A stretch of DNA of 59,724 bases from Myxococcota bacterium (GTDB lineage Bacteria; Myxococcota; JACRCW01): positions 1-59,724 of the forward strand of contig JBFMGU010000028.1 of the NCBI GenBank assembly GCA_040752415.1, in the 5' to 3' direction. Positions 3,783 to 56,670 of this stretch are shown here, piece after piece. Both the position numbers and the translations under genes were made by a program. Below the pieces are notes generated by a model. It did no database searches and was not told the origin of the DNA. It saw only the letters and a program-made list of their open reading frames with translations. The first letter of the stretch is position 1, and each line of letters starts with the position of its first letter.

Positions 3783-3798
3783 GGGCACGTCCCTTGCT
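3783..3798 (+). promoter_or_regulatory. Putative sigma-54 (-24/-12) promoter of the fdh operon
   Basis: GGGCACGTCCCTTGCT = GG-N10-GC, close to consensus TGGCACG-N4-TTGCW; about 26 nt before ATG 3824, which has a GGAGGG SD. Confidence 0.7.
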
Positions 3799-3823
3799 CC
3801 GCCCGGACGTCCGAGGAGGGCGC

Positions 3824-5245
3824 ATGCGGATCCTGGAATGGTCGCGTCGACGGAGCGGAGGGCCGGTTCAGCGCCACGTGCTGCAGGAGCTGCGCGAGGG
3901 GAAAACCGCGGAACAGGTGGAGCAGGAGCACGGGCTCCCCAGGGCCTGGGTTGACGGGCTGACGAGCTTCTACGACCTGCTTCACGGCGAGCGTGAGCGC
4001 GCGTGCACGGGGACCTCGTGCTCATTCCCCGACGGGTGCAAGAGCAACCGGAAGAGCGAGCTGGAAGGCGTCCATTGCCTGGGCCAGTGCTACGCGCCCC
4101 CCGCCACGACGCTGCGCGCGCCCCCGCCGATTCCCCGTCGCTCCATGCTTCAGCCGCCGGTGGTCTTGCGGAACATCCTGGGCGGAGAGGACGCGCGCGG
4201 TGAGTACGTCCTCCCCGACGGAGAAACGATTCTCGGCGCCGTGGAAGCCTCCGGTCTGCGCGGTCGAGGCGGTGCCGCGTTCCCCACCGCGGCGAAGTGG
4301 AAGGCCGCCCGCGACACTCCCGCGCCGGACCGCTACGTGGTGGCCAATGGCGACGAGGGCGACCCGGGTTCCTTTGTCGACCGGTTGCTGTTGGAGGAGG
4401 CGCCCCACGCCGTGCTGGCCGGGATGAAGGCGTGTGCGCGCGCGATTGGTGCACGGAAGGGAATCGTCTTCATCCGCGGTGAGTATCCCGACGCGCACCG
4501 GACGATGCGGAAGGCGATTGACGAAGCGCGTGACCTGGGCCTGCTGGGACAGGAGTTTGACGTCGAGCTGTTCTGTTGCGCGGGGTCCTATGTGGCTGGT
4601 GAGGAGACTGCGCTGCTCCGCGCCATCGAGGGACTGCGCTCCGAGCCCGCGGTGAAGCCGCCCTACCCTGCGCAATGTGGTCTCCAGGGCCTGCCGACGG
4701 TGGTGCAGAACGTGGAGACGCTGGCCGTGATCCCGTGGGTGGTGCGCCATCGTCGTCGTGGTGATGCCAAGGCGTTGAGCGTGGCGGGCGCGGTGGGGAA
4801 GCCCGGCGTCGTCGAGATCCGGCTGGGTACAACGCTGCGCACGGTGCTGGAGGAGGCCTGCGACGGACCGCGACACGGGGCGCGTTGGAAGATGGCGCTG
4901 GTGGGCGGACCGCTGGGGCGCGTGGTTCCGGTCAGCGGATTTGACGTGCCGCTCTCCTACGACGGACTCCCCGGCATGGGCCACGGTGGCATCGTGGTGC
5001 TCGACGACACCGTGACCGCGCGTGAGCTGGCGGAGCACCTGTTCACGTTCGCCCGACGGGAATCCTGTGGGAACTGCACGCCCTGCCGCGTGGGCACGTC
5101 CCGCCTGCACACCATCACCGATCGCCCGGCGCTGGAACGGCTGATGACGACGCTGGAGGCCGGGAGCCTGTGTGGCTTTGGCCAGGGCGTTCCCCGTCCC
5201 ATCCGCGACCTGCTGCAGCATTTCCCGGGGGAGATGTTCCCATGA
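3824..5245 (+). CDS. NAD-linked formate dehydrogenase diaphorase subunit (short NuoE-like [2Fe-2S] domain fused to NuoF/FdsB-like FMN/NADH domain)
   Basis: N-terminal TSFY...CTGTSC...CLGQC (NuoE-type); SGLRGRGGAAFP, NGDEGDPGSFVDR, YVAGEETAL, ESCGNCTPC...LCGFG (NuoF). Start moved to ATG 3824 after the SD. Confidence 0.88.
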   Translation: MRILEWSRRRSGGPVQRHVLQELREGKTAEQVEQEHGLPRAWVDGLTSFYDLLHGERERACTGTSCSFPDGCKSNRKSELEGVHCLGQCYAPPATTLRAPPPIPRRSMLQPPVVLRNILGGEDARGEYVLPDGETILGAVEASGLRGRGGAAFPTAAKWKAARDTPAPDRYVVANGDEGDPGSFVDRLLLEEAPHAVLAGMKACARAIGARKGIVFIRGEYPDAHRTMRKAIDEARDLGLLGQEFDVELFCCAGSYVAGEETALLRAIEGLRSEPAVKPPYPAQCGLQGLPTVVQNVETLAVIPWVVRHRRRGDAKALSVAGAVGKPGVVEIRLGTTLRTVLEEACDGPRHGARWKMALVGGPLGRVVPVSGFDVPLSYDGLPGMGHGGIVVLDDTVTARELAEHLFTFARRESCGNCTPCRVGTSRLHTITDRPALERLMTTLEAGSLCGFGQGVPRPIRDLLQHFPGEMFP

Positions 5246-7860
5246 TCACGGTCAATGGTCGTCCCGTTCCGTCGGGTGGCACCTTGCTGGACGCGTGCAA
5301 GCATGCCGGTGCGCACGTCCCCACCTTCTGCTCCGACGAGAAGCTCCCCGCGGGTGGTCACTGTCGCGCGTGCATGGTGGACGTGGGTGGACGCCTGATG
5401 CCCGCGTGCACCACGCCCTGCCGCGACGGTATGGAGATCCTCACGGAGACGGAGACCGTCCGGCAGTACCGTCGTGACCTGGGCGAGCTGATGGTGGCCG
5501 AGTCCAACCCGCGCGGCGCCGTGAAAGCGGAGCTGGAGAAGTGGGGCGTCACCGGGGAGCGCTACGGGCGCGCGAAACCGTCCGGTATCCACGACGAGAG
5601 CGCGCCCTACCTGCGCCTGGACACCGACGCGTGCATCCGCTGCCACCTGTGCGTGCGCGCGTGCTCCGACATCCAGGGCCAGTTCGTGTACTCGATGCAG
5701 GGTCGCGGCGCGGGTGCGCACCTGGGCTGGGGCAATGTGCCGTTCAACGAGACCGACTGCGTCTCCTGCGGCGCATGCGTTGCCTCCTGCCCCACCGAGG
5801 CCATCACCGACGTGGATCACCTGCGCCAGGCCGCCGACCCGCTGCGCACCGTGCAGACCACGTGCGCGTACTGCGGCGTGGGTTGCCAGATGACCGTGCA
5901 TGCGCGGGGGAACAACGTCGTGGACATCCAGGGCGCGCCCTCCCCCGTCAACGCGGGCCACCTGTGCGTGAAGGGCCGTTACGCCCACGGATTCGCGCGA
6001 CATCGCGACCGACTCACCACGCCGCTCATCCGTCGTGACGGCAGGCTCGTGCCGGCAACGTGGTCGGAGGCCATCAGCTACGTGGCCAGTCGCATGAACG
6101 CGCTGAAGGGGCACGTGGGCGGGCTCTCGTCGTCGCGGTGCACCAATGAGGAGAACTACCTGCTGCAGAAGTGGCTCCGCGCGGTGTACGCCACCAACAA
6201 CGTGGATTGCTGCGCGCGCGTGTGTCACGCCCCCAGCGCCGCGGGCATGCGCGTGGCACTGGGTACCGGCGCGGCCACCAACTCGCTCGCCGACATCGAG
6301 CTGGCGGACCTGCTCATGGTCTCGGGCTCCAACACCACGGAAGCCCATCCCGTCACCGGCGCGCGCATCAAGCAGGCGGTGTTGCGGGGCGCCAAGCTTC
6401 TCGTCGTGGACCCGCGCCGGACGGAGCTGGCGGAGCTGGCCGACGTGCACCTGCAGACGCGCCCCGGCACCAACGTCCCGTTGCTCAACAGCATGGCGTG
6501 CGCGCTCGTCGAGGCGGGCCTGGTGAACCGGGAGTTCATCCACGCGCGCACCGACGGCTGGGAGGCCTACGAGAAGTTCATCCGCCAGTGGCGACCTGAA
6601 TCCGCCGAGGCCATCACCGGCGTCCCCGCCACGCTGGTCCGACGAGCCGCCGAGCTGTACGGGCGCGCGCGCCATCCCATGCAGGTCCACGGCCTGGGCA
6701 TGACCGAGCACTACCAGGGCGCGGAAGGCGTGATGCTGTTGTGCAACCTCGCGCTTCTCGTCGGGGCCATCGGTCGACCGGGCGTGGGCGTCAATCCGCT
6801 GCGCGGTCAGAACAACGTGCAGGGCGCCGCGGACATGGGATGCCAGCCGGACCTCCTGACGGGCTACCAGAACCCGAATGATCCGCAGGTGCGGGAGCGG
6901 TTCGAGCGCGTGTGGGCACGTCCCATTCCGACGACAAAGGGCCTCACCATTCCGCGCATGTACGAGGCCATCCGTCGCGGCGAGCTGCGCGGGCTGTACA
7001 TCTTTGGCGAGGACGTGGTGCAGACGGATCCGCACGCGGGTCTTGTCGCGGAGACGCTGAAGCAGCTGGATCTCCTCGTGGTGCAAGAGATCTTCCTGTC
7101 CGAGACGGCGAAGCTGGCGCACGTGGTCCTGCCGGGTGCGTCGTTCCTGGAGAAGGACGGCACGTTCACCAACGGAGAGCGGCGCGTCCAACGTGTGCGC
7201 CAGATCCTCGACCCACCCGGTGACGCACGCCCGGACTGGCGCATCCTCTGCGACCTCATGGCGGCCACCGGCTACGCGCAACCCTTCCGGCATCCGTCGG
7301 AGATCATGGACGAGATTGCGCTGGTGAATCCCGCGTTCCGCGGCATCAGCCACGCGCGCCTGGAGCGCAACGGCCTGCAGTGGCCCGTCCCCTCCATGGA
7401 CCATCCCGGCACGCCCACCCTCCACGCCACCACGTTCCCCATCGGCAAGGGACGGCTGTCATGCGTGGAGTACCTGCCGTCTCCGTCGCTGAAGGACGCG
7501 GGCGACAAGCTGATGCTCATCACCGGCCGCACGCTGGCGCATTACAACAGCGGGTCCATGACGCGTCGCACGGACAACGTGCGCATCCGCGAAGCGGATC
7601 TGCTGGAGATCAACGACGAGGACGCCGCGCGGCTGGGCGTGGACGACGGCGCGCAGGTGCGGGTCCACAACGAGAACGGCGAGGCGATTGCCACCGCGTG
7701 CGTCACCGACCGCGTGCAGCCGGGCACGCTGTTCATGACGTTCCACTTCCCGGAGAGCGGCGCCAACTGCGTTACCACCGACGTGGTGGACCGGCTCTGC
7801 GACTGCCCGGAGTACAAGCTCACACCGGTCACGGTGGAGCCGCTCCGCGACGGACGGTGA
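5242..7860 (+). CDS. fdhF: Molybdopterin formate dehydrogenase alpha subunit (FdhF/FdsA type, Cys active site)
   Basis: N-terminal [2Fe-2S] (HCRACMV...PAC), CIRCHLCVRAC, CVSCGACVASC, CAYCGVGC, active-site CARVCHAPS, PLRGQNNVQGAADMG, EKDGTFTNGERRVQ, PEYK; ATGA overlap with upstream stop. Confidence 0.93.
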   Translation: MITVNGRPVPSGGTLLDACKHAGAHVPTFCSDEKLPAGGHCRACMVDVGGRLMPACTTPCRDGMEILTETETVRQYRRDLGELMVAESNPRGAVKAELEKWGVTGERYGRAKPSGIHDESAPYLRLDTDACIRCHLCVRACSDIQGQFVYSMQGRGAGAHLGWGNVPFNETDCVSCGACVASCPTEAITDVDHLRQAADPLRTVQTTCAYCGVGCQMTVHARGNNVVDIQGAPSPVNAGHLCVKGRYAHGFARHRDRLTTPLIRRDGRLVPATWSEAISYVASRMNALKGHVGGLSSSRCTNEENYLLQKWLRAVYATNNVDCCARVCHAPSAAGMRVALGTGAATNSLADIELADLLMVSGSNTTEAHPVTGARIKQAVLRGAKLLVVDPRRTELAELADVHLQTRPGTNVPLLNSMACALVEAGLVNREFIHARTDGWEAYEKFIRQWRPESAEAITGVPATLVRRAAELYGRARHPMQVHGLGMTEHYQGAEGVMLLCNLALLVGAIGRPGVGVNPLRGQNNVQGAADMGCQPDLLTGYQNPNDPQVRERFERVWARPIPTTKGLTIPRMYEAIRRGELRGLYIFGEDVVQTDPHAGLVAETLKQLDLLVVQEIFLSETAKLAHVVLPGASFLEKDGTFTNGERRVQRVRQILDPPGDARPDWRILCDLMAATGYAQPFRHPSEIMDEIALVNPAFRGISHARLERNGLQWPVPSMDHPGTPTLHATTFPIGKGRLSCVEYLPSPSLKDAGDKLMLITGRTLAHYNSGSMTRRTDNVRIREADLLEINDEDAARLGVDDGAQVRVHNENGEAIATACVTDRVQPGTLFMTFHFPESGANCVTTDVVDRLCDCPEYKLTPVTVEPLRDGR

Positions 7861-7863
7861 AGC

Positions 7864-8694
7864 GTGGACGCGTTGCTTCCCCCGGAGATCGCCGAGAAGG
7901 CGGAGCAGGTGGGCGTCAAGAAGGCTTCGCTCCCGCTCTCCGTGATGTTCGTCCTCGCCGTCCTGGCGGGCGCGTTCATTGCCATGGGCGGAGTGTTCTC
8001 CTCCGTCGTCAGTGCGGGTGCAGACGCGGTCCCGTACGGCATCACACGCATGCTCAGCGGGCTGGTGTTCTCACTCGGGCTCATCATGGTCGTCGTGGGC
8101 GGCGCGGAGCTGTTCACCGGCAACAACCTCATGGTCATGGCGTGGGCCAATGGAAAGCTCTCCACGACGCAGGTGTTGCGAAACTGGCTCGTGGTCTACG
8201 TCGGCAACTTCGCCGGTGCGTTGGCCACGGCGCTGCTCTGGTTCCACTCGGGAAGCTACCAGGCAGGGAAAGGCGCCGTGGGAGCCAGCATCCTCAGCGC
8301 CGCCAACACACGCCTGGGCTACGACTTCATGCAGGCCGTCTGCCTGGGAATCCTCTGCAACGCACTCGTGTGCATGGCGGTGTGGCTCAGCATGAGCGCG
8401 CGCTCCACGACGGACCGCATCCTGTCGGTGGTTCCGCCCGTGGCCGCGTTCGTTGCCGCGGGGTTCGAGCACTGCGTGGCCAACATGTTCTCCGTGCCCG
8501 CCGCGATCCTTGTGCGCGAAGGCGCAAATGATGCGTTCTGGTCGACGCTGGGCCGCACGCCCGCGGACTACCCGCGGCTCACCTGGGACACCTTCCTGAC
8601 CACCAATCTCCTCCCCGTCACTCTCGGAAACATTTGCGGTGGCGCCCTCCTGGTCGGGGCTGTGTATTGGTTCGTCTACCTGCGACGTCGGTGA
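7864..8694 (+). CDS. focA: Formate/nitrite transporter (FocA/FdhC family)
   Basis: GAELFTGN, LRNWLVVYVGNFAGA, GILCNALVCMAVW, FVAAGFEHCVANM, NLLPVTLGNICGG. Confidence 0.92.
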   Translation: MDALLPPEIAEKAEQVGVKKASLPLSVMFVLAVLAGAFIAMGGVFSSVVSAGADAVPYGITRMLSGLVFSLGLIMVVVGGAELFTGNNLMVMAWANGKLSTTQVLRNWLVVYVGNFAGALATALLWFHSGSYQAGKGAVGASILSAANTRLGYDFMQAVCLGILCNALVCMAVWLSMSARSTTDRILSVVPPVAAFVAAGFEHCVANMFSVPAAILVREGANDAFWSTLGRTPADYPRLTWDTFLTTNLLPVTLGNICGGALLVGAVYWFVYLRRR

Positions 8695-8711
8695 TTGGCG
8701 CAACGGTTGCA
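8695..8711 (+). promoter_or_regulatory. Putative sigma-54 (-24/-12) promoter of nifJ
   Basis: TTGGCGCAACGGTTGCA (GG-N10-GC) in the focA-nifJ gap, upstream of SD GGAGG 8731-8735 and GTG 8740. Confidence 0.65.
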
Positions 8712-8739
8712 AGCTTTCCTCGGGAACTCCGGAGGTCGC

Positions 8740-12339
<3,600 letters not shown>

Positions 12340-12354
12340 CGTCGTCACCGGACG

Positions 12355-12370
12355 CGGCCTCTTCCTTGCA
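12355..12370 (+). promoter_or_regulatory. Putative sigma-54 (-24/-12) promoter of ppsA
   Basis: CGGCCTCTTCCTTGCA (GG-N10-GC, TTGCA intact, weaker -24 box) in the nifJ-ppsA gap. Confidence 0.45.
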
Positions 12371-12411
12371 ATACGCCTTCCTCACAGTCCCCGACGACGG
12401 GAGGCGTGCAC

Positions 12412-14832
12412 ATGGGCGGTCATCACAACAAGAAGGGCGAGCTGGTCCTGTGGTTCGAGCAGGTGGGCATGCAGGACGTGCCTCGCGTGGGCGGCAAGAA
12501 CGCTTCACTCGGTGAGATGTACCGTCAGCTCACGCCGCGCGGCGTGAAGGTGCCCAACGGCTTCGCCGTCACCGCGGCCGGGTACCGGAAGTTCCTGGCG
12601 CATGGTGGCCTCGAGAAGCGGATGTCCGAGCTCCTCAGCGGGCTGGATACGCGCAACCTCGCGGAGCTGCAGCGACGAGGTCGCGAGCTGCGGCAGCTGA
12701 TCCTGGCCGCGTCCTTTCCCAGGGACCTTTCCGAGGGGATCACCACCGCGTACGAGAAGCTGAGCGAGAGCGTGCCGGGCGGCGTCGACGTGGCCGTGCG
12801 CAGCAGTGCCACCGCGGAGGATCTCCCGGACGCGAGCTTTGCCGGACAGCAGGAGACCTTCCTCAACGTGCACGGTCCTGCCGCGCTGCTGGATGCGTGT
12901 CGACGTTGTTTTGCCTCCCTCTTCACCGACCGCGCCATCAGCTACCGCGCGGACAAGGGCTTTGCGCACGAGAAGATCGCGCTCTCCGTGGGTGTGCAGC
13001 GCATGGTCCGCTCCGACCTGGCCACCGCGGGCGTGATGTTCTCCCTGGACACGGAGTCCGGCTTCAAGGACGTGGTCCTCATCAACGCGGCCTACGGACT
13101 GGGCGAGAACGTGGTCCAGGGCAGCGTCAATCCCGACGAGTACCACGTGTTCAAGCCCACCCTGCTGAAGGGGTTCCGCCCCATCATCGGCAAGGCGCTG
13201 GGCAGCAAGGAGTTCAAGGTGGTCTACGACGTGGGCGGCACGCGCATGGTGAAGAACGTGCCCGTCCCGCCGGAGGACCGCACGCGCTACGCGCTCTCCG
13301 ACGACGACATCCTCACCCTCGCCCGCTGGGCCTGCATCATCGAAGAGCACTACTCACGACTGCGCGGTCAGCCCACGCCCATGGACTTGGAGTGGGCCAA
13401 GGACGGGCGCACCGGGGAGCTGTTCGTCGTCCAGGCGCGGCCGGAGACGGTGCAGTCGCGCAAGCGGACCAGCCAGATGGAGACCTACGCGCTGAAGGAG
13501 CGGGGGCCGGTTCTCGTCGAGGGACGCGCGGTGGGTGAGCGCATTGGCGCCGGCCGCGTCAGCGTGATCCACAGCGCGCAGCAGATCGCGCAGTTCCGTG
13601 ACGGCGACATCCTGGTCACCGACAAGACCGACCCGGACTGGGAACCGATCATGAAACGCGCCGCCGCCATCGTCACCAACCGCGGCGGGCGGACCTGTCA
13701 CGCGGCCATTGTGAGTCGGGAGCTGGGCCTGCCGGCCATTGTGGGAACGGAGCGCGGAACGGACGTGGTCAAGCACGGGATGACCATCACCGTGAGCTGT
13801 GCCGAGGGAGACACCGGCCGCGTGTACCAGGGCAAGCTGGCCTACGACGTCAACCGCGTGGATCTCACCAGCCTGTCCCGCCCGCGCACGAAGATCATGA
13901 TGAACGTGGCCAATCCCGCGGAGGCGCTGCGCCTGGCGGCCATCCCCAATGACGGCGTGGGCCTGGCGCGCGAGGAGTTCATCATCAACACGTTCATCCG
14001 CATCCACCCGCTGGCGCTGCTCAACTACGAGCGCATCACGGACCCCGCGGTGAAAGCGGAGATCGACCGGCTGACGCGGGGAGAGCCGGACAAGCCGCGC
14101 TACTTCGTCGACCGGCTGGCGCAGGGCGTGGCCATGCTGGCCGCCGCGTTCCACCCCAACGACGTCATTGTCCGCCTCAGCGACTTCAAGACCAACGAGT
14201 ACGCGAACCTCATTGGCGGCCGCCCGTACGAGCCCGTGGAGGAGAATCCCATGCTCGGGTTCCGCGGCGCGTCCCGCTATTACAACGAGCGCTACCGGGA
14301 GGGCTTCGCGCTGGAGTGTCGCGCGCTGAAGAAGGTGCGGGACGAGATGGGGCTGACCAATCTCAAGGTGATGGTGCCGTTCTGTCGCACGGTGGAGGAG
14401 GGTCGACGCGTGCTGCAGGAGATGGAGCGCCACGGACTGAAGCGCGGCGTCAACGGGCTGGAGGTCTACGTGATGTGCGAGATCCCCAGCAACGTGATCC
14501 TGGCCGAGGAGTTCGCGGAGATCTTCGACGGGTTCTCCATTGGCTCCAATGACCTCACGCAGCTCACGCTCGGCGTGGACCGTGACTCGGAGATCGTGGC
14601 GCCGCTGTTTGATGAGCGGAACCCGGCGGTGAAGAAGCTCATCTCGCAGGTGATCCGCGTGGCGCGGGCGCGCGGCCGGAAGATTGGCATCTGCGGCCAG
14701 GCCCCCAGCGACTACCCCGAGTTCGCGCGGTTCCTCGTCGAGGAGGGCATTGACAGCATCTCGCTGAATCCCGACGCGGTCCTGCGCACCACGTTGGCGG
14801 TGGTGGCGCTGGAGAAGGAGCTGGGTCGCTGA
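12412..14832 (+). CDS. ppsA: Phosphoenolpyruvate synthase (pyruvate,water dikinase)
   Basis: VGGKNASLGEM, VAVRSSATAEDLPDASFAGQQETFLNV, GGRTCHAAIVSRELG (phospho-His), EENPMLGFRGASRY, FSIGSNDLTQL, GICGQAPSD. Confidence 0.96.
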   Translation: MGGHHNKKGELVLWFEQVGMQDVPRVGGKNASLGEMYRQLTPRGVKVPNGFAVTAAGYRKFLAHGGLEKRMSELLSGLDTRNLAELQRRGRELRQLILAASFPRDLSEGITTAYEKLSESVPGGVDVAVRSSATAEDLPDASFAGQQETFLNVHGPAALLDACRRCFASLFTDRAISYRADKGFAHEKIALSVGVQRMVRSDLATAGVMFSLDTESGFKDVVLINAAYGLGENVVQGSVNPDEYHVFKPTLLKGFRPIIGKALGSKEFKVVYDVGGTRMVKNVPVPPEDRTRYALSDDDILTLARWACIIEEHYSRLRGQPTPMDLEWAKDGRTGELFVVQARPETVQSRKRTSQMETYALKERGPVLVEGRAVGERIGAGRVSVIHSAQQIAQFRDGDILVTDKTDPDWEPIMKRAAAIVTNRGGRTCHAAIVSRELGLPAIVGTERGTDVVKHGMTITVSCAEGDTGRVYQGKLAYDVNRVDLTSLSRPRTKIMMNVANPAEALRLAAIPNDGVGLAREEFIINTFIRIHPLALLNYERITDPAVKAEIDRLTRGEPDKPRYFVDRLAQGVAMLAAAFHPNDVIVRLSDFKTNEYANLIGGRPYEPVEENPMLGFRGASRYYNERYREGFALECRALKKVRDEMGLTNLKVMVPFCRTVEEGRRVLQEMERHGLKRGVNGLEVYVMCEIPSNVILAEEFAEIFDGFSIGSNDLTQLTLGVDRDSEIVAPLFDERNPAVKKLISQVIRVARARGRKIGICGQAPSDYPEFARFLVEEGIDSISLNPDAVLRTTLAVVALEKELGR

Positions 14833-15033: not shown

Positions 15034-15070
15034 AAGAAACAACAAAGCCCCCGATTTCTCGGAGGCTTTG
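15034..15070 (-). terminator. Intrinsic terminator downstream of tRNA-Val
   Basis: Minus strand CAAAGCCTCCGA-GAAA-TCGGGGGCTTTG followed by T-rich TTGTTTCTT. Confidence 0.75.
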
Positions 15071-15073
15071 GCA

Positions 15074-15145
15074 TGGGCGCAGCAGGATTTGAACCTACGA
15101 CTCCCACCGTGTGAAGGTGGTACTCTACCGCTGAGTTATGCGCCC
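15074..15145 (-). tRNA. tRNA-Val(CAC), CCA not encoded
   Basis: GGGCGCATAACTCAGCGGTAGAGTACCACCTTCACACGGTGGGAGTCGTAGGTTCAAATCCTGCTGCGCCCA folds as a cloverleaf; anticodon stem CCACC/GGTGG with CAC; T-loop GTTCAAATC. Confidence 0.96.
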
Positions 15146-27584: not shown

Positions 27585-27612
27585 TGATGCGTGATGCGTG
27601 ATGCGTTATGCG
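27585..27612 (+). repeat. Four tandem heptamers (TGATGCG x3 + TTATGCG), probable vapBC operator
   Basis: TGATGCG TGATGCG TGATGCG TTATGCG ending 21 nt before the vapB ATG. Confidence 0.75.
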
Positions 27613-27633
27613 TGGTGGAGGGGTGGAGGCGCC

Positions 27634-27861
27634 ATGAGGACCACGCTGGTCATTGATGACGACGTGCTGGCCGCCGCGCGCGCCCTGGCGGAGCAGCGTC
27701 AGGAGAGCATTGGCAAGGTCATCTCGGACCTGGCGCGACAGGCGCTGACGCCGCGGAGCGCGCCCCGGACCCGCAACGGCGTGCCCCTGTTTCCGCTGCG
27801 TCCCGACGCCACGCCCGTGACCATGGAGCTGGTGAACCGCCTCCGGGATGAGCAGCCCTGA
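27634..27861 (+). CDS. vapB: VapB-type antitoxin (RHH/CopG-like)
   Basis: MRTTLVIDDDVLAAARALA...SIGKVISDLARQAL...RNGVPLFP; GGAGG SD; TGATG coupling to PIN gene. Confidence 0.88.
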   Translation: MRTTLVIDDDVLAAARALAEQRQESIGKVISDLARQALTPRSAPRTRNGVPLFPLRPDATPVTMELVNRLRDEQP

Positions 27862-28301
27862 TGCGGTACCTGCTGGACGTGAACGTGCTCTTGGCGCTGA
27901 TGGACCCCGCGCACGTGATGCATGGCGCGGCGCACGCGTGGTTCGAGAAGAGCGGGAGCCGGAGCTGGGCAACCTGTCCGTTGACGCAGAACGGCGTGGT
28001 CAGGATTGCGGGTCAGCCGTCGTACCCGAATTCTCCCGGCGCGCCTTCGGTGGTTGCGGACCTGCTGGAGCGGTTCACCTCGCACGCCCGGCACGAGCTC
28101 TGGCATGACGACGTCAGCATCCTGGAGACGCGCGTGTTCAACCGCGGCGCGCTGGGCTCACCCGCGCAGCTCACCGACGTCTACCTGCTGGGCCTGGCCA
28201 TGCGACACAACGGGAAGCTCGCCACGTTCGACCGGCGCATCCCGACGGGAGCGGTGCGCGACGGAGCGGCCCATCTCACCGTGATCCCCGCGACGTCCTA
28301 G
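27861..28301 (+). CDS. vapC: VapC PIN-domain ribonuclease toxin
   Basis: YLLDVNVLLAL...H...AHAWF, CPLTQNG, QLTDVYLLGLA, LATFDRRI. Confidence 0.9.
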   Translation: MRYLLDVNVLLALMDPAHVMHGAAHAWFEKSGSRSWATCPLTQNGVVRIAGQPSYPNSPGAPSVVADLLERFTSHARHELWHDDVSILETRVFNRGALGSPAQLTDVYLLGLAMRHNGKLATFDRRIPTGAVRDGAAHLTVIPATS

Positions 28302-28902: not shown

Positions 28903-30813
28903 ATGCCGAGCCTTCGTTACAGCCCCAAGAGCGGCAGCCCCGTTGCGTGGAACCTGTTCAAGAGCATTTCCACCGTGGGCTCGTCCCCCGACGCGGACAT
29001 CAGCCTGGGTTTTGACCCCTCGGTCACAACCCTGCATGCGCAGATCCACAAGGAAGGGGACCGGTTTGCCATCCTGTCGTCGGACCGGACGGCGGATGTC
29101 GTCGTGAACGGCAAGAAGATCAAGCGCCATGAGCTCAAGGACGGGGACACCCTGCGCCTGGGCGGCACGGAGCTGGTCTACCGGGATGAGGACGCCCACG
29201 ACGAGGAAGAAGTCGACCGCTCCCCCCCGCCCGTCAAGACGGTGACCACCACGGTGCCCACCCCGCGCGCCACGGCAAGGCCGGCCACGCAGGGCACGGA
29301 GCTGGCGGCGTACCGTCGGCTGCACGCGTTCAGCCAGAAGCTCATGGAGGCGCCCAAGGTCCCGGAACAGCTGGACCTCCTCCTCGACGAGGCCATCCAG
29401 GTCACCGCCGCGGACAAGGGCTTCATTGTGCTGATGGAGGACGGGAGCCCGCAGGTGGTGGCCGCGCGCAACATGGATGGCGCCACCATTGCCAACGGCG
29501 TGCAGCAGCTGTCCGACAGCATCATCAAGCGCGTGGTGGAGACCAAGAGGCCACTCATTGTCAGCGACGCGCTCCACGACGAGAACTTCAACGCCGCGGA
29601 GAGCGTCCTCTCGCTGAAGCTGTGCTCCGTCATCTGCGCGCCGCTCATGTACAAGGGCGAGCTGTTTGGCCTGCTCTACCTGGGCAACGACCGCATCGCC
29701 TCGCTGTTCGACGAGCGGAGCCTGGAGCTGCTCACCGTGTTCGCCAGCCACGCCGCGCTGGTGGTGAAGAACGCGCAGAACCTCCATGAGCTGAAGACGC
29801 AGAACCAGGTGTTGCGGGAGCGGCTGGAGAGCCAGAAGTACGGCGACGTCGTGGGCGGCTGCGACGGGATGCGTGAGGTCTTCAAGAAGATCGACAAGGT
29901 GGCGGGCACGGACATCAGCGTGCTCATCACCGGCGAGACGGGCACCGGCAAGGAGCTCATTGCGCGGGAGATCCACCGGCGGAGCCACCGGGCCAAGGGT
30001 CCGCTCGTCGTCATCAACTGCGGCGCCATTCCGGAGAACCTGCTGGAGAGCGAGCTGTTCGGTCACGTGCGCGGCGCGTTCACCGGCGCAGTGGCCACCC
30101 GCGTGGGCAAGTTCCAGGCAGCCGACAAGGGCACGCTCTTCCTCGACGAAATTGGCGAGATGCCGGTGGCGCTGCAGGTGAAGATCCTGCGGGCGTTGCA
30201 GGAGCGTGTCGTCGTGAAGGTGGGCGACAGCCGGCCGGAGACGGTGGACATCCGCATCATTGCCGCCACCAACCGCCGCCTGGACGAGGAGATCAAGGCC
30301 GGTCGGTTCCGCGAGGACCTGTACTACCGGCTCAACGTGGTGCAGCTGCACCTGCCCCCGCTGCGCGAGCGTGGCGACGATCTCATCGTCATCGCCAAGT
30401 ACCTGCTGCAGAAGTACGCCAAGGAGACGGGCAGCAAGGTGAAGGGCTTCAGCACGGAGTGCATTGCGGCCATGCGCAAGTCTGCGTGGCCGGGCAACAT
30501 CCGGCAGCTGGAGAACCGCATCAAGCGTGCCGTCGTCCTCGCCGAGAAGAGCACGTTGACGCCGGAGGACATGGACCTGCGCCCGGAGGACATGCAGCCG
30601 CTGTTGGCGCTGCAGGACGCCAAGGACCAGTTCGAGCGGCGGTACATCAACGAGGCGCTGGGGCGGAACGGCGGCAACCGGACGCAGACGGCGCGGGACC
30701 TGGGGGTGGATCCCCGCACCATCTTCCGCCACCTGGAGCGGGAGCGTGCGGAGCGCCTGGCGCGCGGGGAGCCGGCGGGCGAAGAACTCGTCCCCGCGGA
30801 CGACGAGAAGTAG
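28903..30813 (+). CDS. Sigma-54-dependent enhancer-binding protein, FHA-GAF-AAA+-Fis HTH
   Basis: N-terminal FHA-like ([10 protein letters not shown]...HAQI...VVVNG...[10 protein letters not shown]), GAF (SVICAPL...GLLYL), [62 protein letters not shown]. Confidence 0.93.
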
Positions 30814-30924: not shown

Positions 30925-31482
30925 ATGGCACCGGCGTTGCTTGGGACCCTGGTGATGTGCGCGCTGGCGCTGATGGCGTGCATCCCGGAGTACTACGCCG
31001 TGGAGCAGGACAACACGAACCACCCGGTGGTGATCGACAAGACCGCCGTTGTGCCTCAAGTGCCGTGGGAGACCGACGGCCACGTTGTCTGGGACCCCGC
31101 GCAGCAATCCACGTACGAGTTCCAGCTCCGGTCCATTGAGGACGCCGACGCCAGTGACACGTTGTACGCGACCTGGTTTGTTGCGTTTGACCAGAACGTC
31201 TCCGGCCTGAACTCCTACTCCGACTTTCACGAAATCCCGCCCCCAGCCGAAGGTCCGAGAAGGGACATCTACGTCCTGACGGCGTCGAAGTTGGCCGAGA
31301 TAGACCGTTTCCGGAACGCCGCGGTGGATGGGGGCGCTGTGGCTCGTCGTCGCTACCTGGTCACCGTGAAGGTTGCGGACCGTCAGCCCCAGATCTCACG
31401 GACGCTCGACACCTATCCGTCCGACGCCACCACGGATCAGGTTCACTGGACCCTTGAGGTTGCGAGCACGGGATCGCCATGA
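30925..31482 (+). CDS. Hypothetical lipoprotein
   Basis: Hydrophobic N-terminus with LMAC lipobox-like motif; ATGA overlap with the next gene. Confidence 0.65.
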   Translation: MAPALLGTLVMCALALMACIPEYYAVEQDNTNHPVVIDKTAVVPQVPWETDGHVVWDPAQQSTYEFQLRSIEDADASDTLYATWFVAFDQNVSGLNSYSDFHEIPPPAEGPRRDIYVLTASKLAEIDRFRNAAVDGGAVARRRYLVTVKVADRQPQISRTLDTYPSDATTDQVHWTLEVASTGSP

Positions 31483-48148: not shown

Positions 48149-49504
48149 GTGACCACCACCGAAAACTACGCGAAGCTTCCCGCCGGCCGTCCCGAGGAGT
48201 CGCTCCCGGACCATCACCCCAGCTACTCGCGCGCGGACGCCGTGGTGGAAGCACGCCGGTGCCTCTACTGCTACGAGGCCCCGTGTCAGGACGCGTGCCC
48301 GACGGAAATCGACATCCCCACCTTCATCCGCAAGATCGCCACCGGCAACCTCCGCGGCGCGGCCAAGACCATCCTGGCCTCCAACGTGAACGCGCTGTCC
48401 TGCGCACGCGTTTGCCCCGTGGAGGTCCTCTGCGCGGGCTCCTGCGTCTACAACCACCTCGACGGCGGGCAGCCTCCCATTGCCATCGGTCGCCTGCAGC
48501 AGCACGCGCTGGAGCACGCGTACACGCAGGGCACGGTGCACACGCTGCTGGGCCCCAAGGACCCGCCCACGGGTCGGAAGATTGCGTTGGTGGGCGCGGG
48601 TCCCGCGTCATTGGCGGCGGCGGCGGAGCTGACCCTGCGGGGTCACTCCTGCGTCATCTTCGAGGGGCGCGACTTCCCGGGCGGTCTCAACACCACCGGC
48701 GTGGCGCCGTACAAGATGAAGGCCTCGGAAGCACTGCGCGAAGTGCAGATGGTGCTGGACCTGGGCGTGGAGCTGCGCACGAACACCATGGTGGGTCGTG
48801 ACGTCACGCCGGAGGAGCTGCTGGACCAGTATGACGCCGTCTTCCTGGGCGTGGGCCTTGGCCCCGACGGTGCCGTGGGCGCCGACGGCGAGGACCTGCC
48901 CGGCGTGCACGGCGCGGTGGCCCTCATTGAGCGGCTGAAGACGGAGCCCGGCCCCGTGACCGAGGGCGTGGCGCACGCCGTGGTCATTGGCGGCGGCAAC
49001 ACGGCCATCGACATTGCGCGGGAGCTCAAGTTCCTGCGCGTGCCGGAGGTGACCATGGTCTACCGTCGTGGCGAGCCGGCCATGAGCGCCTATGAGCATG
49101 AGCAGGAGGCCGCCAAGCACGAGGGCGTGCGCTTCCTGCATTGGCACCAGCCCGTGGTCTTCCGCGGCACCGACCGCGTGCGCTCCGTGCAGCTCGCCCG
49201 CACCAAGGAGGGCGCGAATGGGCGCCTGGAGGTGACCGAGCAGCTCGTCGAGATTCCCTGCGACCTGGTGGCGCTGGCCGTGGGTCAGGGCAAGCTCAAG
49301 GAGCTGTGCGAGAGCTTCCCGGGCGTGCAGTTCACGGGCGGTCGTGTCGTGGTGGATTCCCAGACCGGGCGCACCGGCAACCCGCGCGTCTTCGCCGGTG
49401 GCGACGTGGCCAACGGCGGCAAGGAGGTGGTCAACGCCACCGCCGAGGGCAAGCTGGCCGCCAAGGCCATCCACCAGATGCTGTCCAACGGTCACGCTGC
49501 GTGA
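48149..49504 (+). CDS. preT: NAD-dependent dihydropyrimidine dehydrogenase subunit PreT (GltD-like)
   Basis: EARRCLYCYEAPCQDACP, CARVCPVEVLC, VGAGPA, IGGGNTAID, FAGGD; upstream of preA. Confidence 0.88.
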   Translation: MTTTENYAKLPAGRPEESLPDHHPSYSRADAVVEARRCLYCYEAPCQDACPTEIDIPTFIRKIATGNLRGAAKTILASNVNALSCARVCPVEVLCAGSCVYNHLDGGQPPIAIGRLQQHALEHAYTQGTVHTLLGPKDPPTGRKIALVGAGPASLAAAAELTLRGHSCVIFEGRDFPGGLNTTGVAPYKMKASEALREVQMVLDLGVELRTNTMVGRDVTPEELLDQYDAVFLGVGLGPDGAVGADGEDLPGVHGAVALIERLKTEPGPVTEGVAHAVVIGGGNTAIDIARELKFLRVPEVTMVYRRGEPAMSAYEHEQEAAKHEGVRFLHWHQPVVFRGTDRVRSVQLARTKEGANGRLEVTEQLVEIPCDLVALAVGQGKLKELCESFPGVQFTGGRVVVDSQTGRTGNPRVFAGGDVANGGKEVVNATAEGKLAAKAIHQMLSNGHAA

Positions 49505-49839
49505 TGAGCCCCGCCACCACGCCCGACGACGAGGACGAGGTTGCCAGCCCATCTGCGGGCCGGCGCGCGTTCCGCCTGGGCCTGGTGGCCATGTACGTCA
49601 CGTTCTGCATTGCCTTGATTGCGTTCAACCAGATCTATCCGTCGCAAGGCAGCCTGCAGATCCTGACGTACCTGTTCGCGGTCTACATGGCCGCGCGCGC
49701 GCTGGCGCAGTGGCTGACCTACCGGAGGGAGACGCGCCCTCCCCGCTATTCCAAGAGCTACATCCGCGCCGACGACCTCTTCCCACCACAGAACAAGTCC
49801 GACACCGACGAGAAACCCAACGGGAGTCCCCATGGCTGA
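49504..49839 (+). CDS. Small two-TM membrane protein between preT and preA
   Basis: MSPATTPDDEDE...two hydrophobic helices (LGLVAMYVTFCIALIAF; ILTYLFAVYMAARALAQW); TGATG overlap with preT and 8-nt overlap with preA. Confidence 0.7.
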   Translation: MSPATTPDDEDEVASPSAGRRAFRLGLVAMYVTFCIALIAFNQIYPSQGSLQILTYLFAVYMAARALAQWLTYRRETRPPRYSKSYIRADDLFPPQNKSDTDEKPNGSPHG

Positions 49840-51196
49840 CCTCTCGATCAACTGCGCAGGCATCAAGAGCCCCAACCCGTTCTGGCTGGCCTCCGCCCCG
49901 CCCACCAACACCGGAGACCAGGTGATGCGCGCGTTTGACGCCGGCTGGGGTGGCGCGGTGTGGAAGACGCTGGGCGAGCCGATTGTGAACGTGACCAGCC
50001 GCTTTGGTGGCCTGGACATCAACGGTCAGCGCCTGGCGGGCCTCAACAACATCGAGCTGATCACCGACCGTCCCCTGGAGGTGAACCTCAAGGAGATTGC
50101 GGAGGTGAAGCGGCGCTATCCCAAGCACGCCGTGATCGTCTCGTTGATGTTCGAGACCAAGGACGAGTGGCGCGACATCATCAAGCGCTCCGAGGACACC
50201 GGCTGCGACGGACTGGAGCTCAACTTCGGCTGCCCGCACGGCATGTGTGAGCGCGGCATGGGCAGCGCGGTAGGCCAGGAGCCGCGTGTCCTCGAGGAGA
50301 TCACCGGCTGGGTGAAGGAGTTCGCCAAGACGCCGGTGCTGGTGAAGCTCACGCCCAACATCACGGACATCCGCCTGCCGGGTCGGGCGGCGGCGCGCGC
50401 GGGCGCGGATGGCATCAGCCTCATCAACACCATCAAGAGCCTCATTGGCGTGGACCTGGACAAGCTGGTGCCGTTCCCCGTCGTGGGGAACAGGAGCACC
50501 AACGGCGGCTACTGCGGTCCGGCGGTGAAACCCATTGCGCTGCACATGGTGGCGCAGCTGGCGCAGGACCCCGCGGTGCGCAAGCCCATCAGCGGCATTG
50601 GCGGCATCAGCAACTGGCGCGACGCCGCGGAGTTCATGGCCCTGGGCGCCACCAGTGTGCAGGTGTGCACGGCGGTGATGCACTACGGGTTCCGCATCGT
50701 GGAGGACATGATCGAGGGGCTGGACGCCTACCTCGACGAGAAGGGCCTCAAGAGCGCCATGGACCTGGTGGGCATGGCCGTCCCCGCGTTCAGCGACTGG
50801 GGCAACCTGGACATGAACCACAAGGTGATGGCCAAGATCGACCCGATGAAGTGCATCGGTTGCGACCTGTGCCACATCGCCTGTCGCGACGGCAGCCACG
50901 ACTGCATCCACTTCCACGACCAGGGCAGCCCCGCGCTGGAGGACGTCAAGGCGGTCATTGCCAAGCGGGAGGGCGCGCCGCCGGCGCATCGCATTCCTTA
51001 CGTCGCTGCGCACGAGTGCACGGGGTGCAATCTGTGCAGCCTGGTGTGCCCGGTGGAGGGCTGCATCACCATGGTCGACGTCACGCCGAACAAGAGCCCG
51101 GAGAGCTGGAACGAGCGCATGGAGCGCCTGGGCAACCACCAGGACGCCGTGGCGTTCACCAAGAACTACCAGGGCTGGCACCGCAGCGGTCACTGA
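49832..51196 (+). CDS. preA: NAD-dependent dihydropyrimidine dehydrogenase subunit PreA
   Basis: NPFWLASAPPT, GWGGAVWKT, NNIELI, ELNFGCPHGMCERGMG, KLTPNITDI, GGYCGPAVKP, CIGCDLCHIAC, CTGCNLCSLVCP. Confidence 0.94.
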   Translation: MADLSINCAGIKSPNPFWLASAPPTNTGDQVMRAFDAGWGGAVWKTLGEPIVNVTSRFGGLDINGQRLAGLNNIELITDRPLEVNLKEIAEVKRRYPKHAVIVSLMFETKDEWRDIIKRSEDTGCDGLELNFGCPHGMCERGMGSAVGQEPRVLEEITGWVKEFAKTPVLVKLTPNITDIRLPGRAAARAGADGISLINTIKSLIGVDLDKLVPFPVVGNRSTNGGYCGPAVKPIALHMVAQLAQDPAVRKPISGIGGISNWRDAAEFMALGATSVQVCTAVMHYGFRIVEDMIEGLDAYLDEKGLKSAMDLVGMAVPAFSDWGNLDMNHKVMAKIDPMKCIGCDLCHIACRDGSHDCIHFHDQGSPALEDVKAVIAKREGAPPAHRIPYVAAHECTGCNLCSLVCPVEGCITMVDVTPNKSPESWNERMERLGNHQDAVAFTKNYQGWHRSGH

Positions 51197-54963: not shown

Positions 54964-56670
54964 TCAGACCATCGAGACGCGACGCGGATACAGCGGGAAC
55001 TTGCGCGTGAGCGCGTGGACCTTCGCGCGGATGGCGCCGAGCGCGGCGTCGTCGTCACGGGCCTTGATGGCGGCCAGGCACAGCTCACCAATGAGCTCCA
55101 TCTCCTTCTCACCCATGCCGCGGGAGGTGACCGCCGGCGTCCCGAAGCGCACACCGCTGGTGACGGCGGGTTTCTGGGTGTCGAAGGGGATCATGTTCTT
55201 GTTCACGGTGATGCCGGCCTTGCCCAGCGCGTTCTCACACTCCTTGCCGTTGCTGTTGAACGGGCGCACGTCGAGGAGCATGAGGTGGTTGTCCGTGCCA
55301 CCGCTGACCAGCTTGCCGCCGCCCTGCGTGAGCACCCGCGCCAACGCCTGCGCGTTCTTCACAATCTGCCGCTGGTAGTCCTTGAACGCAGGCTGCAGCG
55401 CCTCCTGGAAGCACACCGCCTTGGCGGCAATGACGTGCATCAGCGGGCCACCCTGCGTGCCCGGGAACACGCGGCTGTCCACCACCTTCTGCTCGGAGGC
55501 CTTGCACAGGATCATGCCGCCACGCGGGCCGCGCAGCGTCTTGTGCGTGGTGGTGGTGACGAACTCCGCGTGCGGGACGGGATTGGGATGGATCCCCGCC
55601 GCCACCAGGCCGGCAATGTGCGCCATGTCCACGAACAGCTTGGCGCCCACGCCGCGGGCAATGGACGCGAAGCGCTCGAAGTCGATGGTGCGCGGGTACG
55701 CGCTGGCGCCGGCGAGGATCAGCTTGGGCCGGTGCTCCTCGGCGAGCTTCTGGAGGTGGTCGTAGTCAATCCGGTGGTCCTCCTCGCGCACGCCGTAGGG
55801 GATGATCTTGTAGAGCCGGCCGCTGAAGTTCACGGCGGATCCGTGGGTCAGGTGCCCGCCGTGATCCAGGTTCATGGCCAGGACCTTGTCGCCCGGATCC
55901 ACCGCGGCCATGTACACGGCGAGATTGGCCGAAGCGCCGGAGTGCGGCTGCACGTTCGCGTGATCGGATCCGAAGAGCTGCTTGGCGCGGTCGATGGCGA
56001 GTTGCTCGATGACGTCGTGGAACTCGCAGCCGCCGTAGTAGCGCTTGCCGGGATAGCCCTCCGCGTACTTGTTGGTGAGCGGGCTGCCCATGGCCTCCAG
56101 CACCGCCTCGGAGACAAAGTTCTCGCTGGCAATGAGCTCCAGCCCCTCCGCCTGGCGCCGCGTCTCCTTGCCGATGAGGTCGAAGATCTGCGGGTCGGTC
56201 CCGTGCAGCGGGCTGCCATTGGCTGACTGTGCCTGCGCGTCAAAGGCGCCAATCTTCTGCACGCGCGTCTCGTGACGCCCGCCCTCGAAGGAGGTCTTCA
56301 GGAACGCGTCCACGATGTCGGCGGCGACGCCGGAGCCCACCACGCGCTCCCCCAGGCAGAGCACGTTGGCGTTGTTGTGCGCCCGGGCCATGCGCGCCTG
56401 CCACTCCAGCGTGCAGTTGGCGGCGCGGATGCCAGGCAGCTTGTTGGCGGTGATGGCCACGCCGGTGCCGCTGCCGCAGACCAGGATGCCCAGGTCGGCC
56501 TGACCGCCGGTGACGGCGCTGGCGACGGCGGGGACCACGTCCGGGTAGTCCACCTTGGCTTCACCGGTGGGGCCCACGTCCGCGACGGGGATGTTGCGCT
56601 CCTGCAGGAGCTTGAGGACTTCCGACTTGAGCCGCTGACCGGCGTGATCCGCTGCGATGACCAGTTTCAT
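54964..56670 (-). CDS. glyA: Fused ribose-5-phosphate isomerase B + serine hydroxymethyltransferase (RpiB-GlyA)
   Basis: N-term [29 protein letters not shown] (RpiB); in frame with [57 protein letters not shown] (SHMT). Confidence 0.94.

Follow-up and report, generated by a model that had tools for sequence, protein, structure and literature searches.

The five genes and their products

The window considered here is the whole 59,724-nucleotide contig JBFMGU010000028.1 (C201 in our numbering) of assembly GCA_040752415.1, the genome of an uncultured, soil-type member of the Myxococcota, of 11.0 Mb in 520 contigs, which is 96.8% complete and 4.3% contaminated. At 3783..14832 it carries five plus-strand genes, named from Pfam and NCBIfam matches as fdsB, fdsA, focA, PFOR and ppsA (Table 1), which encode a predicted formate dehydrogenase (FDH) of two subunits, a formate channel, a pyruvate:ferredoxin oxidoreductase (PFOR) and a phosphoenolpyruvate (PEP) synthase. 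An earlier interpretation made from the DNA letters alone (hereafter the sequence-only reading) had proposed these identities and a tightly packed, co-oriented arrangement, and both are borne out by the domain matches and by the four junctions, which measure -4, +3, +45 and +72 nt in order. It had also called the organism a myxobacterium, which holds at the level of the phylum; below that level the genome falls into a thinly sampled class, for which one other genome of the same family and two more of the class were compared. We favour the view that the run is an operon for formate-fuelled carbon assimilation, in which formate would be imported and oxidized and PFOR and PpsA would turn acetyl-CoA or pyruvate into PEP, and we give this view a probability of roughly 0.45.

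Table 1. Positions of the five genes, the candidate promoter and the downstream features in the window.
Feature	Position	Strand	Product or description	Supporting match
Candidate sigma-54 (-24/-12) promoter	3783..3798	+	GGGCACGTCCCTTGCT	motif match only
fdsB	3824-5245	+	NuoE-like 2Fe-2S/NuoF-like FDH beta subunit	Complex1_51K, SLBB, NADH_4Fe-4S
fdsA	5242-7860	+	molybdenum/tungsten (Mo/W) bis-molybdopterin guanine dinucleotide (bis-MGD) FDH alpha subunit	TIGR01591 771.5 bits (cut-off 666.25)
focA	7864-8694	+	pentameric FNT-family formate channel	TIGR04060 294.3 bits (cut-off 290.1)
PFOR	8740-12339	+	NifJ-type homodimeric pyruvate:ferredoxin/flavodoxin oxidoreductase	TIGR02176 1639.9 bits (cut-off 911.35)
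ppsA	12412-14832	+	PEP synthase (pyruvate, water dikinase)	TIGR01418 1195.4 bits (cut-off 739.75)
GC-rich hairpin, downstream boundary	15043..15070			terminator scan
tRNA-Val(CAC)	15074-15145	minus	convergent on ppsA	

Start codons were refined from the sequence, and ribosome sites lie upstream of every gene in the run. Translation of fdsB would begin at ATG 3824, preceded by GAGGAGG, and that of fdsA at ATG 5242, which shares ATGA with the fdsB stop; the two are translationally coupled, with fdsB upstream. The remaining starts are GTG 7864 for focA, GTG 8740 for PFOR (preceded by GGAGG) and ATG 12412 for ppsA (preceded by GGGAGG). Between 2800 and 16500 there are 5 terminator-like matches against 5.2 expected, none of them inside the run with a good T tract, and no sigma-70 promoter against 0.9 expected. 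From this operon-like layout we consider that the five genes are probably co-transcribed. The interval 3783..14832, as first delimited, opens on a sigma-54-like motif and closes on the ppsA stop codon. Downstream of the operon there is a single strong hairpin, a stem of 12 pairs that on the minus strand runs into a T-rich tail. It serves as terminator of the tRNA-Val gene, which converges on ppsA, and possibly it acts in both directions and stops the ppsA transcript as well.

FdsA contains the Molybdopterin, Molydop_binding and Molybdop_Fe4S4 domains of Pfam behind a NuoG-like N-terminus (Fer2_4 plus two 4Fe-4S domains, residues 26-213). Its best solved relatives, 9wxb_B (E 5.9e-222) and 6tg9_A (E 2.8e-218), match over the full length, and the alignment with 9wxb_B keeps the Cys-His of ...ARVCHAPS... 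and the Arg of ...NPLRGQNNVQG.... We take these to be the metal-ligand position of FDHs (cysteine or selenocysteine, Sec) with the His that follows it, and their conserved Arg. The protein is of the Cys and not the Sec type, because its frame is open without an in-frame TGA.

FdsB is not a true NuoF, as it reaches 282.8 bits where the NuoF model demands 558.65; its residues 134-470 match HydB, NuoF and FdsB chains, including 6tg9_B and 7e5z_B. The first 133 residues, searched alone, gave no Pfam match. All 12 aligned homologues keep four cysteines of this part (C61, C66, C85 and C89), and for longer homologues a match to the NuoE-like family PF01257 is on record. Judged by this invariant Cys motif and by PF01257 in the longer homologues, FdsB joins in one chain a short NuoE-like 2Fe-2S domain and a NuoF-like flavin mononucleotide (FMN)/NAD(H) module. 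The operon and its flanks have no gene for FdsG, the separate NuoE-like gamma subunit, nor any for FdsD, for which a genome-wide search was not made.

Electron-bifurcating FDHs of the HydABC/HylABC-like kind typically carry extra C-terminal 2x[4Fe-4S] ferredoxin domains on the beta subunit. The beta subunit at one metagenome locus, L168, does carry such Fer4 domains (residues 544-594), whereas FdsB ends straight after NADH_4Fe-4S, with no C-terminal ferredoxin domain found by Pfam, and on this ground an electron-bifurcating FDH was rejected. By its domain make-up FdsBA is a two-subunit NAD-type FDH of the non-bifurcating FdsA/FdsB kind, with a predicted formate:NAD+ oxidoreductase activity.

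Set against Rhodobacter capsulatus FdsABG(D) (PDB 6tg9/6tga), the alpha subunit can be aligned from end to end, the Cys-His and the Arg being kept, and the NuoF-like part of the beta subunit matches. The differences are that the separate FdsG gene is absent from the operon and that no fdsC or fdsD adjoins it, with FdhD encoded on another contig. In the two-subunit tungsten FDH (PDB 7e5z/7vw6) the NuoE-like part is likewise fused into the beta subunit (7e5z_B). Compared with both systems, the NuoE-like domain of the window protein is shortened, to below Pfam detection.

FocA passes its family cut-off only marginally. Its residues 2-274 nevertheless align end to end with the solved channels 3q7k, 3kcu and 3kly (E ~1e-77), and the pore Thr and His, presumably Thr91 and His209 in E. 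coli numbering, are kept (...ELFTG... and ...GFEHCVANMF..., against ...DLFTS... and ...GFEHSIANMF... in solved FocA). There is a single FocA in the genome. In a collection of 5.8 billion proteins the nearest relative is 69% identical, with none closer, and the named close relatives are from Chloroflexota (~63-69% identity).

The textbook pairing for this channel is focA-pflB of enterobacteria, and in both arrangements FocA is placed directly beside an enzyme that converts pyruvate to acetyl-CoA; as noted for the solved channels, alignment with the enterobacterial protein is end to end and the pore Thr and His are retained. The partner in the window, however, is PFOR and not the glycyl-radical PflB, and as PFOR yields CO2 and not formate, the cargo of FocA would have to come from outside or from CO2 reduction. 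No PFL-like (pyruvate formate-lyase, PFL) gene was found in the genome: the assembly has no PF02901 match and no tblastn match with two PflB queries from metagenome loci, so that the lack of pflB already remarked on for the window extends to the whole assembly.

The PFOR is complete in its Pfam domains (POR_N, PFOR_II, POR, EKR, 2x4Fe-4S and TPP_enzyme_C) and covers positions 2-1166 of the 1167 in the TIGR02176 model; it is single copy in the genome, and its best solved match is 6cin_A (1290 bits). The C-terminal extension of Desulfovibrio africanus PFOR is oxygen-protecting. An extension of that type is missing here, the alignment with 1b0p_A ending at residue 1177 of 1231 with about 13 query residues beyond. 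PpsA reaches 1212.6 bits with NF005057 and has PPDK_N (ATP-grasp), the PEP-utilizers mobile domain (phospho-His) and PEP-utilizers_C all present; ppsA is the only full-length copy, since a second, on contig C477, lacks the middle domain and is matched as two separate pieces.

Recurrence of the gene links and of the candidate promoter

The sequence-only reading treated the five genes as one module. As a set of five they are not conserved, and only links between some of them recur. The exact set is absent from 118 PFOR loci, from 80 metagenome FocA loci and from the samples of the phylum, which comprised 401 genomes including that of the window (G000). Around the PFOR loci of 10 relatives (~7-8 kb each side where the contig allows) none has fdsA, fdsB, focA or ppsA; the best 80 further PFOR loci in genome contigs (up to 10 kb each side, at most 62% identity) likewise lack fdsA, focA and ppsA, with a NuoF-like gene in one; and none of the 28 further loci from the phylum (1.5 kb each side) has any partner gene. 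A PPDK (pyruvate, phosphate dikinase) query placed this enzyme directly beside PFOR in 2 of 90 loci, as PPDK then PFOR in L038 (= G039) and as PFOR then PPDK in L067.

Within the phylum sample, a NifJ-type PFOR occurs in 152 of 401 genomes, an FdsA-type FDH in 58, PpsA in 51 and an FNT protein (E <= 1e-20) in 22. PFOR and FdsA-type FDH are thus common in the phylum and the enzymes themselves are ordinary, and we see nothing remarkable in their presence. FocA of at least 47% identity is found in 5 of 400 genomes once G000 is excluded, and all five (G068, G027 and G083, which belong to one genus, with G130 and G008) also have FdsA and PpsA. In the four of these that offer enough contig, ppsA lies within 8 kb of focA-fdsA every time, which is far above chance in genomes of 6-8 Mb. 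The arrangement is tightest in G130, where ppsA is divergent from focA-fdsB-fdsA at a distance of a few hundred bases (identity to the window 61% for fdsA, 53% for fdsB and 55% for ppsA); ppsA stands 2.3 kb past fdsA in G008 and 6-7 kb off, with unrelated genes between, in G027 and G083. The supporting lineages amount to four genera, the window's own included, and kin among them are not independent. In two more genomes, G015 and G045, a distant FNT is encoded at most 3 kb from a Sec-type FdsA.

As a separate observation, the full-length FdsA beside focA in G027, G083 and G008 (loci L241, L242 and L243) has no NuoF-like beta gene nearby, and its electron acceptor may for that reason differ from NAD+.

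A second link joins PFOR to PpsA. One of 29 PpsA loci (1.5 kb each side) has a PFOR: in G052, a 10-Mb genome of the same phylum, ppsA is followed after ~45 nt by PFOR (L330:9081-15061, with L331; contig C22). The pair lies beside an alternative ATP synthase operon and a Usp gene, and near a NiFe hydrogenase with NAD-binding and Fe-S subunits, hypDEF, a cNMP-binding protein and an Nfn-like pair, so that here ppsA-PFOR is found beside another low-potential donor system.

The neighbours of FocA in the 80 metagenome loci, only 38 of which have at least 3 kb on one side, place the window in a wider setting. FDH alpha is the commonest partner among those screened (7 loci, against 6 for PflB), followed by ADP-forming acetyl-CoA synthetase (5) and, with two loci each, NifJ-type PFOR (L151 and L185), distant 2-oxoacid oxidoreductases, PPDK and formate-tetrahydrofolate ligase. 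In L185, PFOR is followed by focA after a 48-nt gap. L151 (L151:3-10368) packs into 10.4 kb PFOR and PPDK on one strand and, on the opposite one, FocA with an NAD-type FDH alpha; it thus unites the four functions of the window with PPDK replacing PpsA, and its FDH alpha is of the Sec type, with an in-frame stop at 8629-8631. On L155, a contig related to L151, we also noted PPDK, acetyl-CoA transferase, FocA, FdsB and FdsA.

A published parallel is a Chloroflexi metagenome-assembled genome (MAG) from Lost City, in which focA beside an NAD-type FDH was interpreted as serving formate uptake and oxidation, according to the available part of that source (PMC7117926). As described there, FocA is directly beside FDH alpha, as in the window, and the partners of the MAG enzyme are NuoG/HoxF/HoxE-like (PMC7117926). 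The MAG enzyme differs in being a Sec enzyme with separate diaphorase subunits, and the accessible text on the cluster leaves PFOR and PEP synthase unmentioned (PMC7117926), whereas the window has both.

A candidate promoter of the sigma-54 type accompanies several of these units. GGGCACGTCCCTTGCT ends 26 nt upstream of the fdsB ATG and agrees with 11 of the 12 specified positions of TGGCACG-N4-TTGCW, which we take to be the sigma-54 consensus, with GG and GC 10 nt apart. The window has a single copy of the exact core GGCACG-N4-TTGC; if one mismatch is tolerated, 12 copies are counted against 11.4 expected, no excess over chance. Genome-wide, 22.0 Mb of strand sequence contain 92 sites of at least 11/12, a rate of 0.0042 per kb of strand, and the chance of meeting one on the right strand of the 440-nt upstream region is therefore ~0.002. 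Inverted repeats in the upstream region are weak only, and rpoN is present in the genome (C476). Comparable sites stand ~50 nt before ppsA in G130 (TGGCACGCCGTTCGCT, 11/12; L239) and 28 nt before ppsA-PFOR in G052 (TGGAACGAGATTTGCT, 11/12; L330), and a 10/12 site precedes fdsA in G008 (L243). PpsA-containing FocA-FDH or PFOR units thus appear to share candidate promoters of this type.

The only other sigma-54-like site of this quality in the window, TGGCACCGGCGTTGCT (11/12), is on the plus strand at 30926-30941. It comes directly after an enhancer-binding-protein gene (FHA-GAF-sigma54-HTH, 28903-30813), at the start of an open reading frame (ORF) of no family (30925-31482) that is followed by a CarboxypepD_reg-domain gene.

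How the run arose can be considered from the proteins. In a FastTree phylogeny of 79 PFORs, the window PFOR is sister (SH-like support 90) to its counterpart in G001, the one further member of the family among the genomes compared; other PFORs from the phylum sit with records titled Anaeromyxobacteraceae and Polyangia. The tree is in favour of placing the genome in the Myxococcota, and it also suggests that the PFOR descended vertically in the family. The two PFOR loci share no flanks, and G001 has no close fdsA (best 33%), no FocA and no PpsA at the thresholds used. A recent foreign origin of the run was rejected, since G+C at third codon positions is like that of the neighbours (0.82-0.90 for the five genes; the window is 65-70% G+C throughout), the PFOR groups with a genome of the same family, and the closest FdsB homologues are labelled Polyangia, Myxococcota or Deltaproteobacteria. 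Only FocA is nearer to Chloroflexota-labelled proteins, which is weak evidence for a foreign origin. To judge from these proteins, a focA-FDH(-ppsA) neighbourhood and a native PFOR seem to have been joined specifically in this lineage to form the operon.

What is new, then, is that two recurring links are fused in one unit, that a FocA-FDH-PpsA neighbourhood exists in several Myxococcota genera, and that sigma-54-type promoters seem to be shared. The sequence-only reading did not know the gene set as a described operon, and our literature search, made at the level of search results, agrees: it found no paper on fdsBA-focA-PFOR-ppsA.

A proposed use of formate as fuel for PEP synthesis, and other readings

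In the reading that we favour, FocA would admit formate to the cell and FdsBA would oxidize it to CO2 and NADH. The NADH would feed respiration and, via an Rnf-like complex encoded elsewhere, would also regenerate reduced ferredoxin. PFOR would connect the C2 and C3 pools, most likely as a pyruvate synthase (acetyl-CoA + CO2 + reduced ferredoxin to pyruvate), and PpsA would commit pyruvate to gluconeogenesis by way of PEP, at the cost of ATP. The unit would probably be switched on from the sigma-54 promoter by an enhancer-binding protein. The directions in which FDH and PFOR run are inferred, as are the oxygen regime and where reduced ferredoxin would come from. That formate serves as fuel beside a C2/C3-to-PEP route, whichever way PFOR runs, seems to us slightly better than an even bet; the full chain with a reductive PFOR is a tentative proposal that we rate somewhat below even.

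Reduction of CO2 with NADH is uphill by ~20 kJ/mol under standard conditions and works only at micromolar formate. Because of this, because the FDH is of the formate-oxidizer kind and because no internal source of formate was found, FocA and FdsBA are read as formate import and oxidation; the lack of a PFL-like gene in particular makes FocA more likely to be an importer.

The rest of the genome, where the sequence-only reading had proposed to look for partner genes, supplies some of them: Acs, an Rnf-like cluster, FdhD and MoeA were found, and pflB, Pta and acetate kinase were not, with the proviso that in an incomplete assembly 'not found' is not 'absent'. The genome also encodes AceE, the E1 component of pyruvate dehydrogenase (PDH), with a score above cut-off, together with formate-tetrahydrofolate ligase, two PPDKs and an acetyl-CoA hydrolase/transferase (C139). 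Neither a NiFe hydrogenase nor a match to an ADP-forming acetyl-CoA synthetase query from locus L183 was found in it. As PDH is present, PFOR is not needed for pyruvate oxidation, and its special contribution would be its reversibility. The linkage of PpsA to FocA-FDH, and of PpsA or PPDK to PFOR, suggests an external reductant used for energy together with PEP made from small acids.

The Rnf-like cluster consists of RnfC-like, FMN_bind (RnfG-like) and RnfD genes on contig C334 (L213:2410-12261) and has a large multihaem cytochrome c gene on either side (747 and 1148 residues). The neighbourhood is unusual in its own right, and through it electron transfer outside the cell or in the periplasm might be connected to ferredoxin or NADH.

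Physiological precedent comes from Geobacter sulfurreducens, in which, so far as the available portions of the two sources go, Por is the sole route to enough pyruvate from acetate (PMC2233667) and growth with formate or H2 as donor requires acetate as the carbon source (PMC7894505). The reactions that we propose are the same: an inorganic-type donor for energy, acetyl-CoA + CO2 to pyruvate by a homodimeric PFOR, and PEP by PpsA or PPDK (PMC2233667, PMC7894505). Geobacter also encodes a PDH, as does the window genome, and there it does not replace Por (PMC2233667, PMC7894505). In these partial accounts the two systems differ in that the Geobacter genes are scattered (GSU0097, GSU0803, GSU0777-80) whereas those of the window are in one operon, and in that the Geobacter FDH is periplasmic and membrane-bound and thus needs no FocA, whereas the window set is cytoplasmic and NAD-linked (PMC2233667, PMC7894505). 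A second comparison is the rnf2 operon of the Solemya velum symbiont, which is reported, in the part of the paper at hand, to have PFOR between rnfB and rnfC (PMC4287430). Both systems put a low-potential electron module and PFOR in one run and share the question of whether PFOR builds or burns pyruvate; the module of the symbiont is Rnf (PMC4287430), that of the window FocA plus FDH, with its Rnf-like genes on another contig.

The sequence-only reading had weighed two directions for the pathway. The first (formate import, oxidation and acetyl-CoA carboxylation to PEP) fits better than the second (fermentation with formate as electron sink), because the FDH is non-bifurcating, an Rnf-like cluster and Acs are encoded, PDH is available for pyruvate oxidation and Geobacter physiology provides a model.

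Several points weigh against formate-fuelled assimilation. Direction is not encoded in sequence, and FDH, FocA and PFOR are all reversible. The supply of ferredoxin is conjectural: the operon encodes neither a ferredoxin nor a flavodoxin, and the Rnf-like cluster, on another contig and among multihaem cytochromes, may serve another purpose. Two isocitrate lyase loci offer an alternative route from acetyl-CoA to C4 and C3 compounds, and PFOR is therefore not required for acetate assimilation with oxygen. The comparative support also has its limits. The five-gene set is a one-off that merges two recurring links, FocA-FDH-PpsA and PFOR with PpsA or PPDK. A NifJ-type PFOR (E <= 1e-200) is found in none of the five FocA-FDH-PpsA genomes and is thus outside the conserved core; three of those five genomes are from one genus, and in three of the four supporting loci the PpsA link is loose (2-7 kb, with unrelated genes intervening). 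At 20 other FdsA loci of the phylum (~9 kb each side), 19 are without ppsA and one has a distant ppsA of 40% identity; none of the 20 has FocA or PFOR. Finally, the promoter is a candidate resting on a motif match, and no gene for an enhancer-binding protein adjoins the operon, the nearest (FHA-GAF-AAA-HTH, 28903-30813) being 15 kb away.

The strongest rival, which we hold to be unlikely, is a low-oxygen catabolic unit, in which FdsBA would burn formate, PFOR would burn pyruvate in place of PDH at high NADH or low oxygen, PpsA would divert some pyruvate (from alanine, serine or lactate) to gluconeogenesis, and the Rnf-like complex would return ferredoxin electrons to NAD+ with the gain of an ion gradient. 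The breadth of NifJ-type PFOR in a phylum with many respiring organisms is consistent with this, and the Rnf-like cluster could run in that direction too. So is the company that the genes keep in relatives: in G008 a TRAP organic-acid transporter is beside focA and a Usp gene just past fdsA, and the Usp gene and alternative ATP synthase near ppsA-PFOR in G052 are typical of stress or low-oxygen islands. PpsA of E. coli is needed for growth on pyruvate or lactate. Yet with the PDH E1 present a second oxidative route needs a special reason, and there is no obvious benefit in adding a further reductant-producing step to formate as a reductant. The adjacency of PFOR to PpsA or PPDK, moreover, fits the handing over of a product better than competition for one substrate.

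It is more improbable still that the genes have no metabolic coupling, being four independent functions under one promoter (for example of a sigma-54 starvation or developmental programme) or neighbours by rearrangement, with PFOR inserted between an older focA-FDH and ppsA. The unique five-gene order would fit, as would a PFOR apparently native to the family, whose sister in G001 comes without close fdsA, focA or ppsA and with no flanking gene common to the two loci, and the variable spacing of ppsA from focA-FDH in relatives, with unrelated genes between. Against this, overlapping or near-abutting frames are seldom kept without co-expression, and the pairings recur in separate lineages, even with the analogous PPDK for PpsA. 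The proximity of ppsA to focA in all four evaluable genomes is also far from what chance would give.

We see a slight chance that FDH and PFOR together act as a PFL-independent 'reverse pyruvate formate-lyase', in which formate electrons would reach PFOR at low potential, bypassing NADH, for a net conversion of formate + acetyl-CoA + ATP to PEP. Formate electrons lie at about -430 mV, and they could leave the Fe-S chain of FdsA either on a shared ferredoxin or through direct contact with the ferredoxin domain built into PFOR. Freshly released CO2 would then be fixed onto acetyl-CoA, so that formate carbon would be assimilated by a route not described before, and the hydrogenase and Nfn-like pair beside ppsA-PFOR in G052 could be an H2-driven version.

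Least probable among the coupled schemes is fermentative disposal of reductant, a PFL-free equivalent of focA-pflB in which PFOR would split pyruvate, the electrons would pass via ferredoxin, Rnf and NADH to CO2, FdsBA would make formate and FocA export it. This would account for a FocA with no PFL found, and for FocA directly beside PFOR here and in L185 and with it in L151; other FocA loci such as L168 have a beta subunit whose extra ferredoxin domains could merge NADH and ferredoxin electrons onto CO2, and FdsABG-type enzymes can slowly reduce CO2 in vitro. The window FdsB, however, has no such domains, the reduction with NADH would be uphill by ~20 kJ/mol under standard conditions, and the ATP-spending, gluconeogenic PpsA would be left without a role; moreover, as no acetate kinase, Pta, NiFe hydrogenase or ADP-forming acetyl-CoA synthetase of the L183 type was found, the ATP gain would rest on the CoA-transferase route only (C139). 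Formate feeding the Calvin cycle was rejected, no RuBisCO having been found in the genome.

The rest of the window, and implications

The genes flanking the run are housekeeping genes unrelated to it. Upstream are infC, an M50 peptidase gene and a gene for a 648-residue protein without a family; downstream are genes for an alpha/beta hydrolase, a TPR/cNMP-binding protein, citrate synthase, an ABC-F protein and succinate dehydrogenase. Three further features drew our attention. On the plus strand at 27598-28301, beside the succinate dehydrogenase genes, the stop of an 87-residue ORF overlaps a PIN-domain gene of 146 residues, and the two are likely a VapBC-type toxin-antitoxin pair. A GltD-like gene (Fer4_20 + Pyr_redox_2) adjoins a DHO_dh + 4Fe-4S gene at 48149-51196 (plus strand), and this pair resembles an NAD-dependent dihydropyrimidine dehydrogenase of the PreT/PreA type. 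On the minus strand at 54964-56670, a 568-residue frame contains an RpiB/LacAB domain (residues 4-140) and a complete serine hydroxymethyltransferase (156-529), and is either a fusion or two genes in frame without an intervening stop.

The gene set is compact, fully cytoplasmic and movable to a host, and a formate-driven carboxylation of C2 to C3 compounds is of interest for formate-based bioproduction. The co-travelling of FocA, FDH and PpsA with sigma-54-type candidate promoters points to an unrecognized regulator. A lifestyle on formate and small acids is documented for Geobacter and for sulfate reducers, and the same literature search found no paper describing it for Myxococcota. If formate-fuelled assimilation is the true reading, a large-genome, mostly respiratory member of this phylum could live on formate together with acetate or other small acids in low-oxygen niches of the soil.

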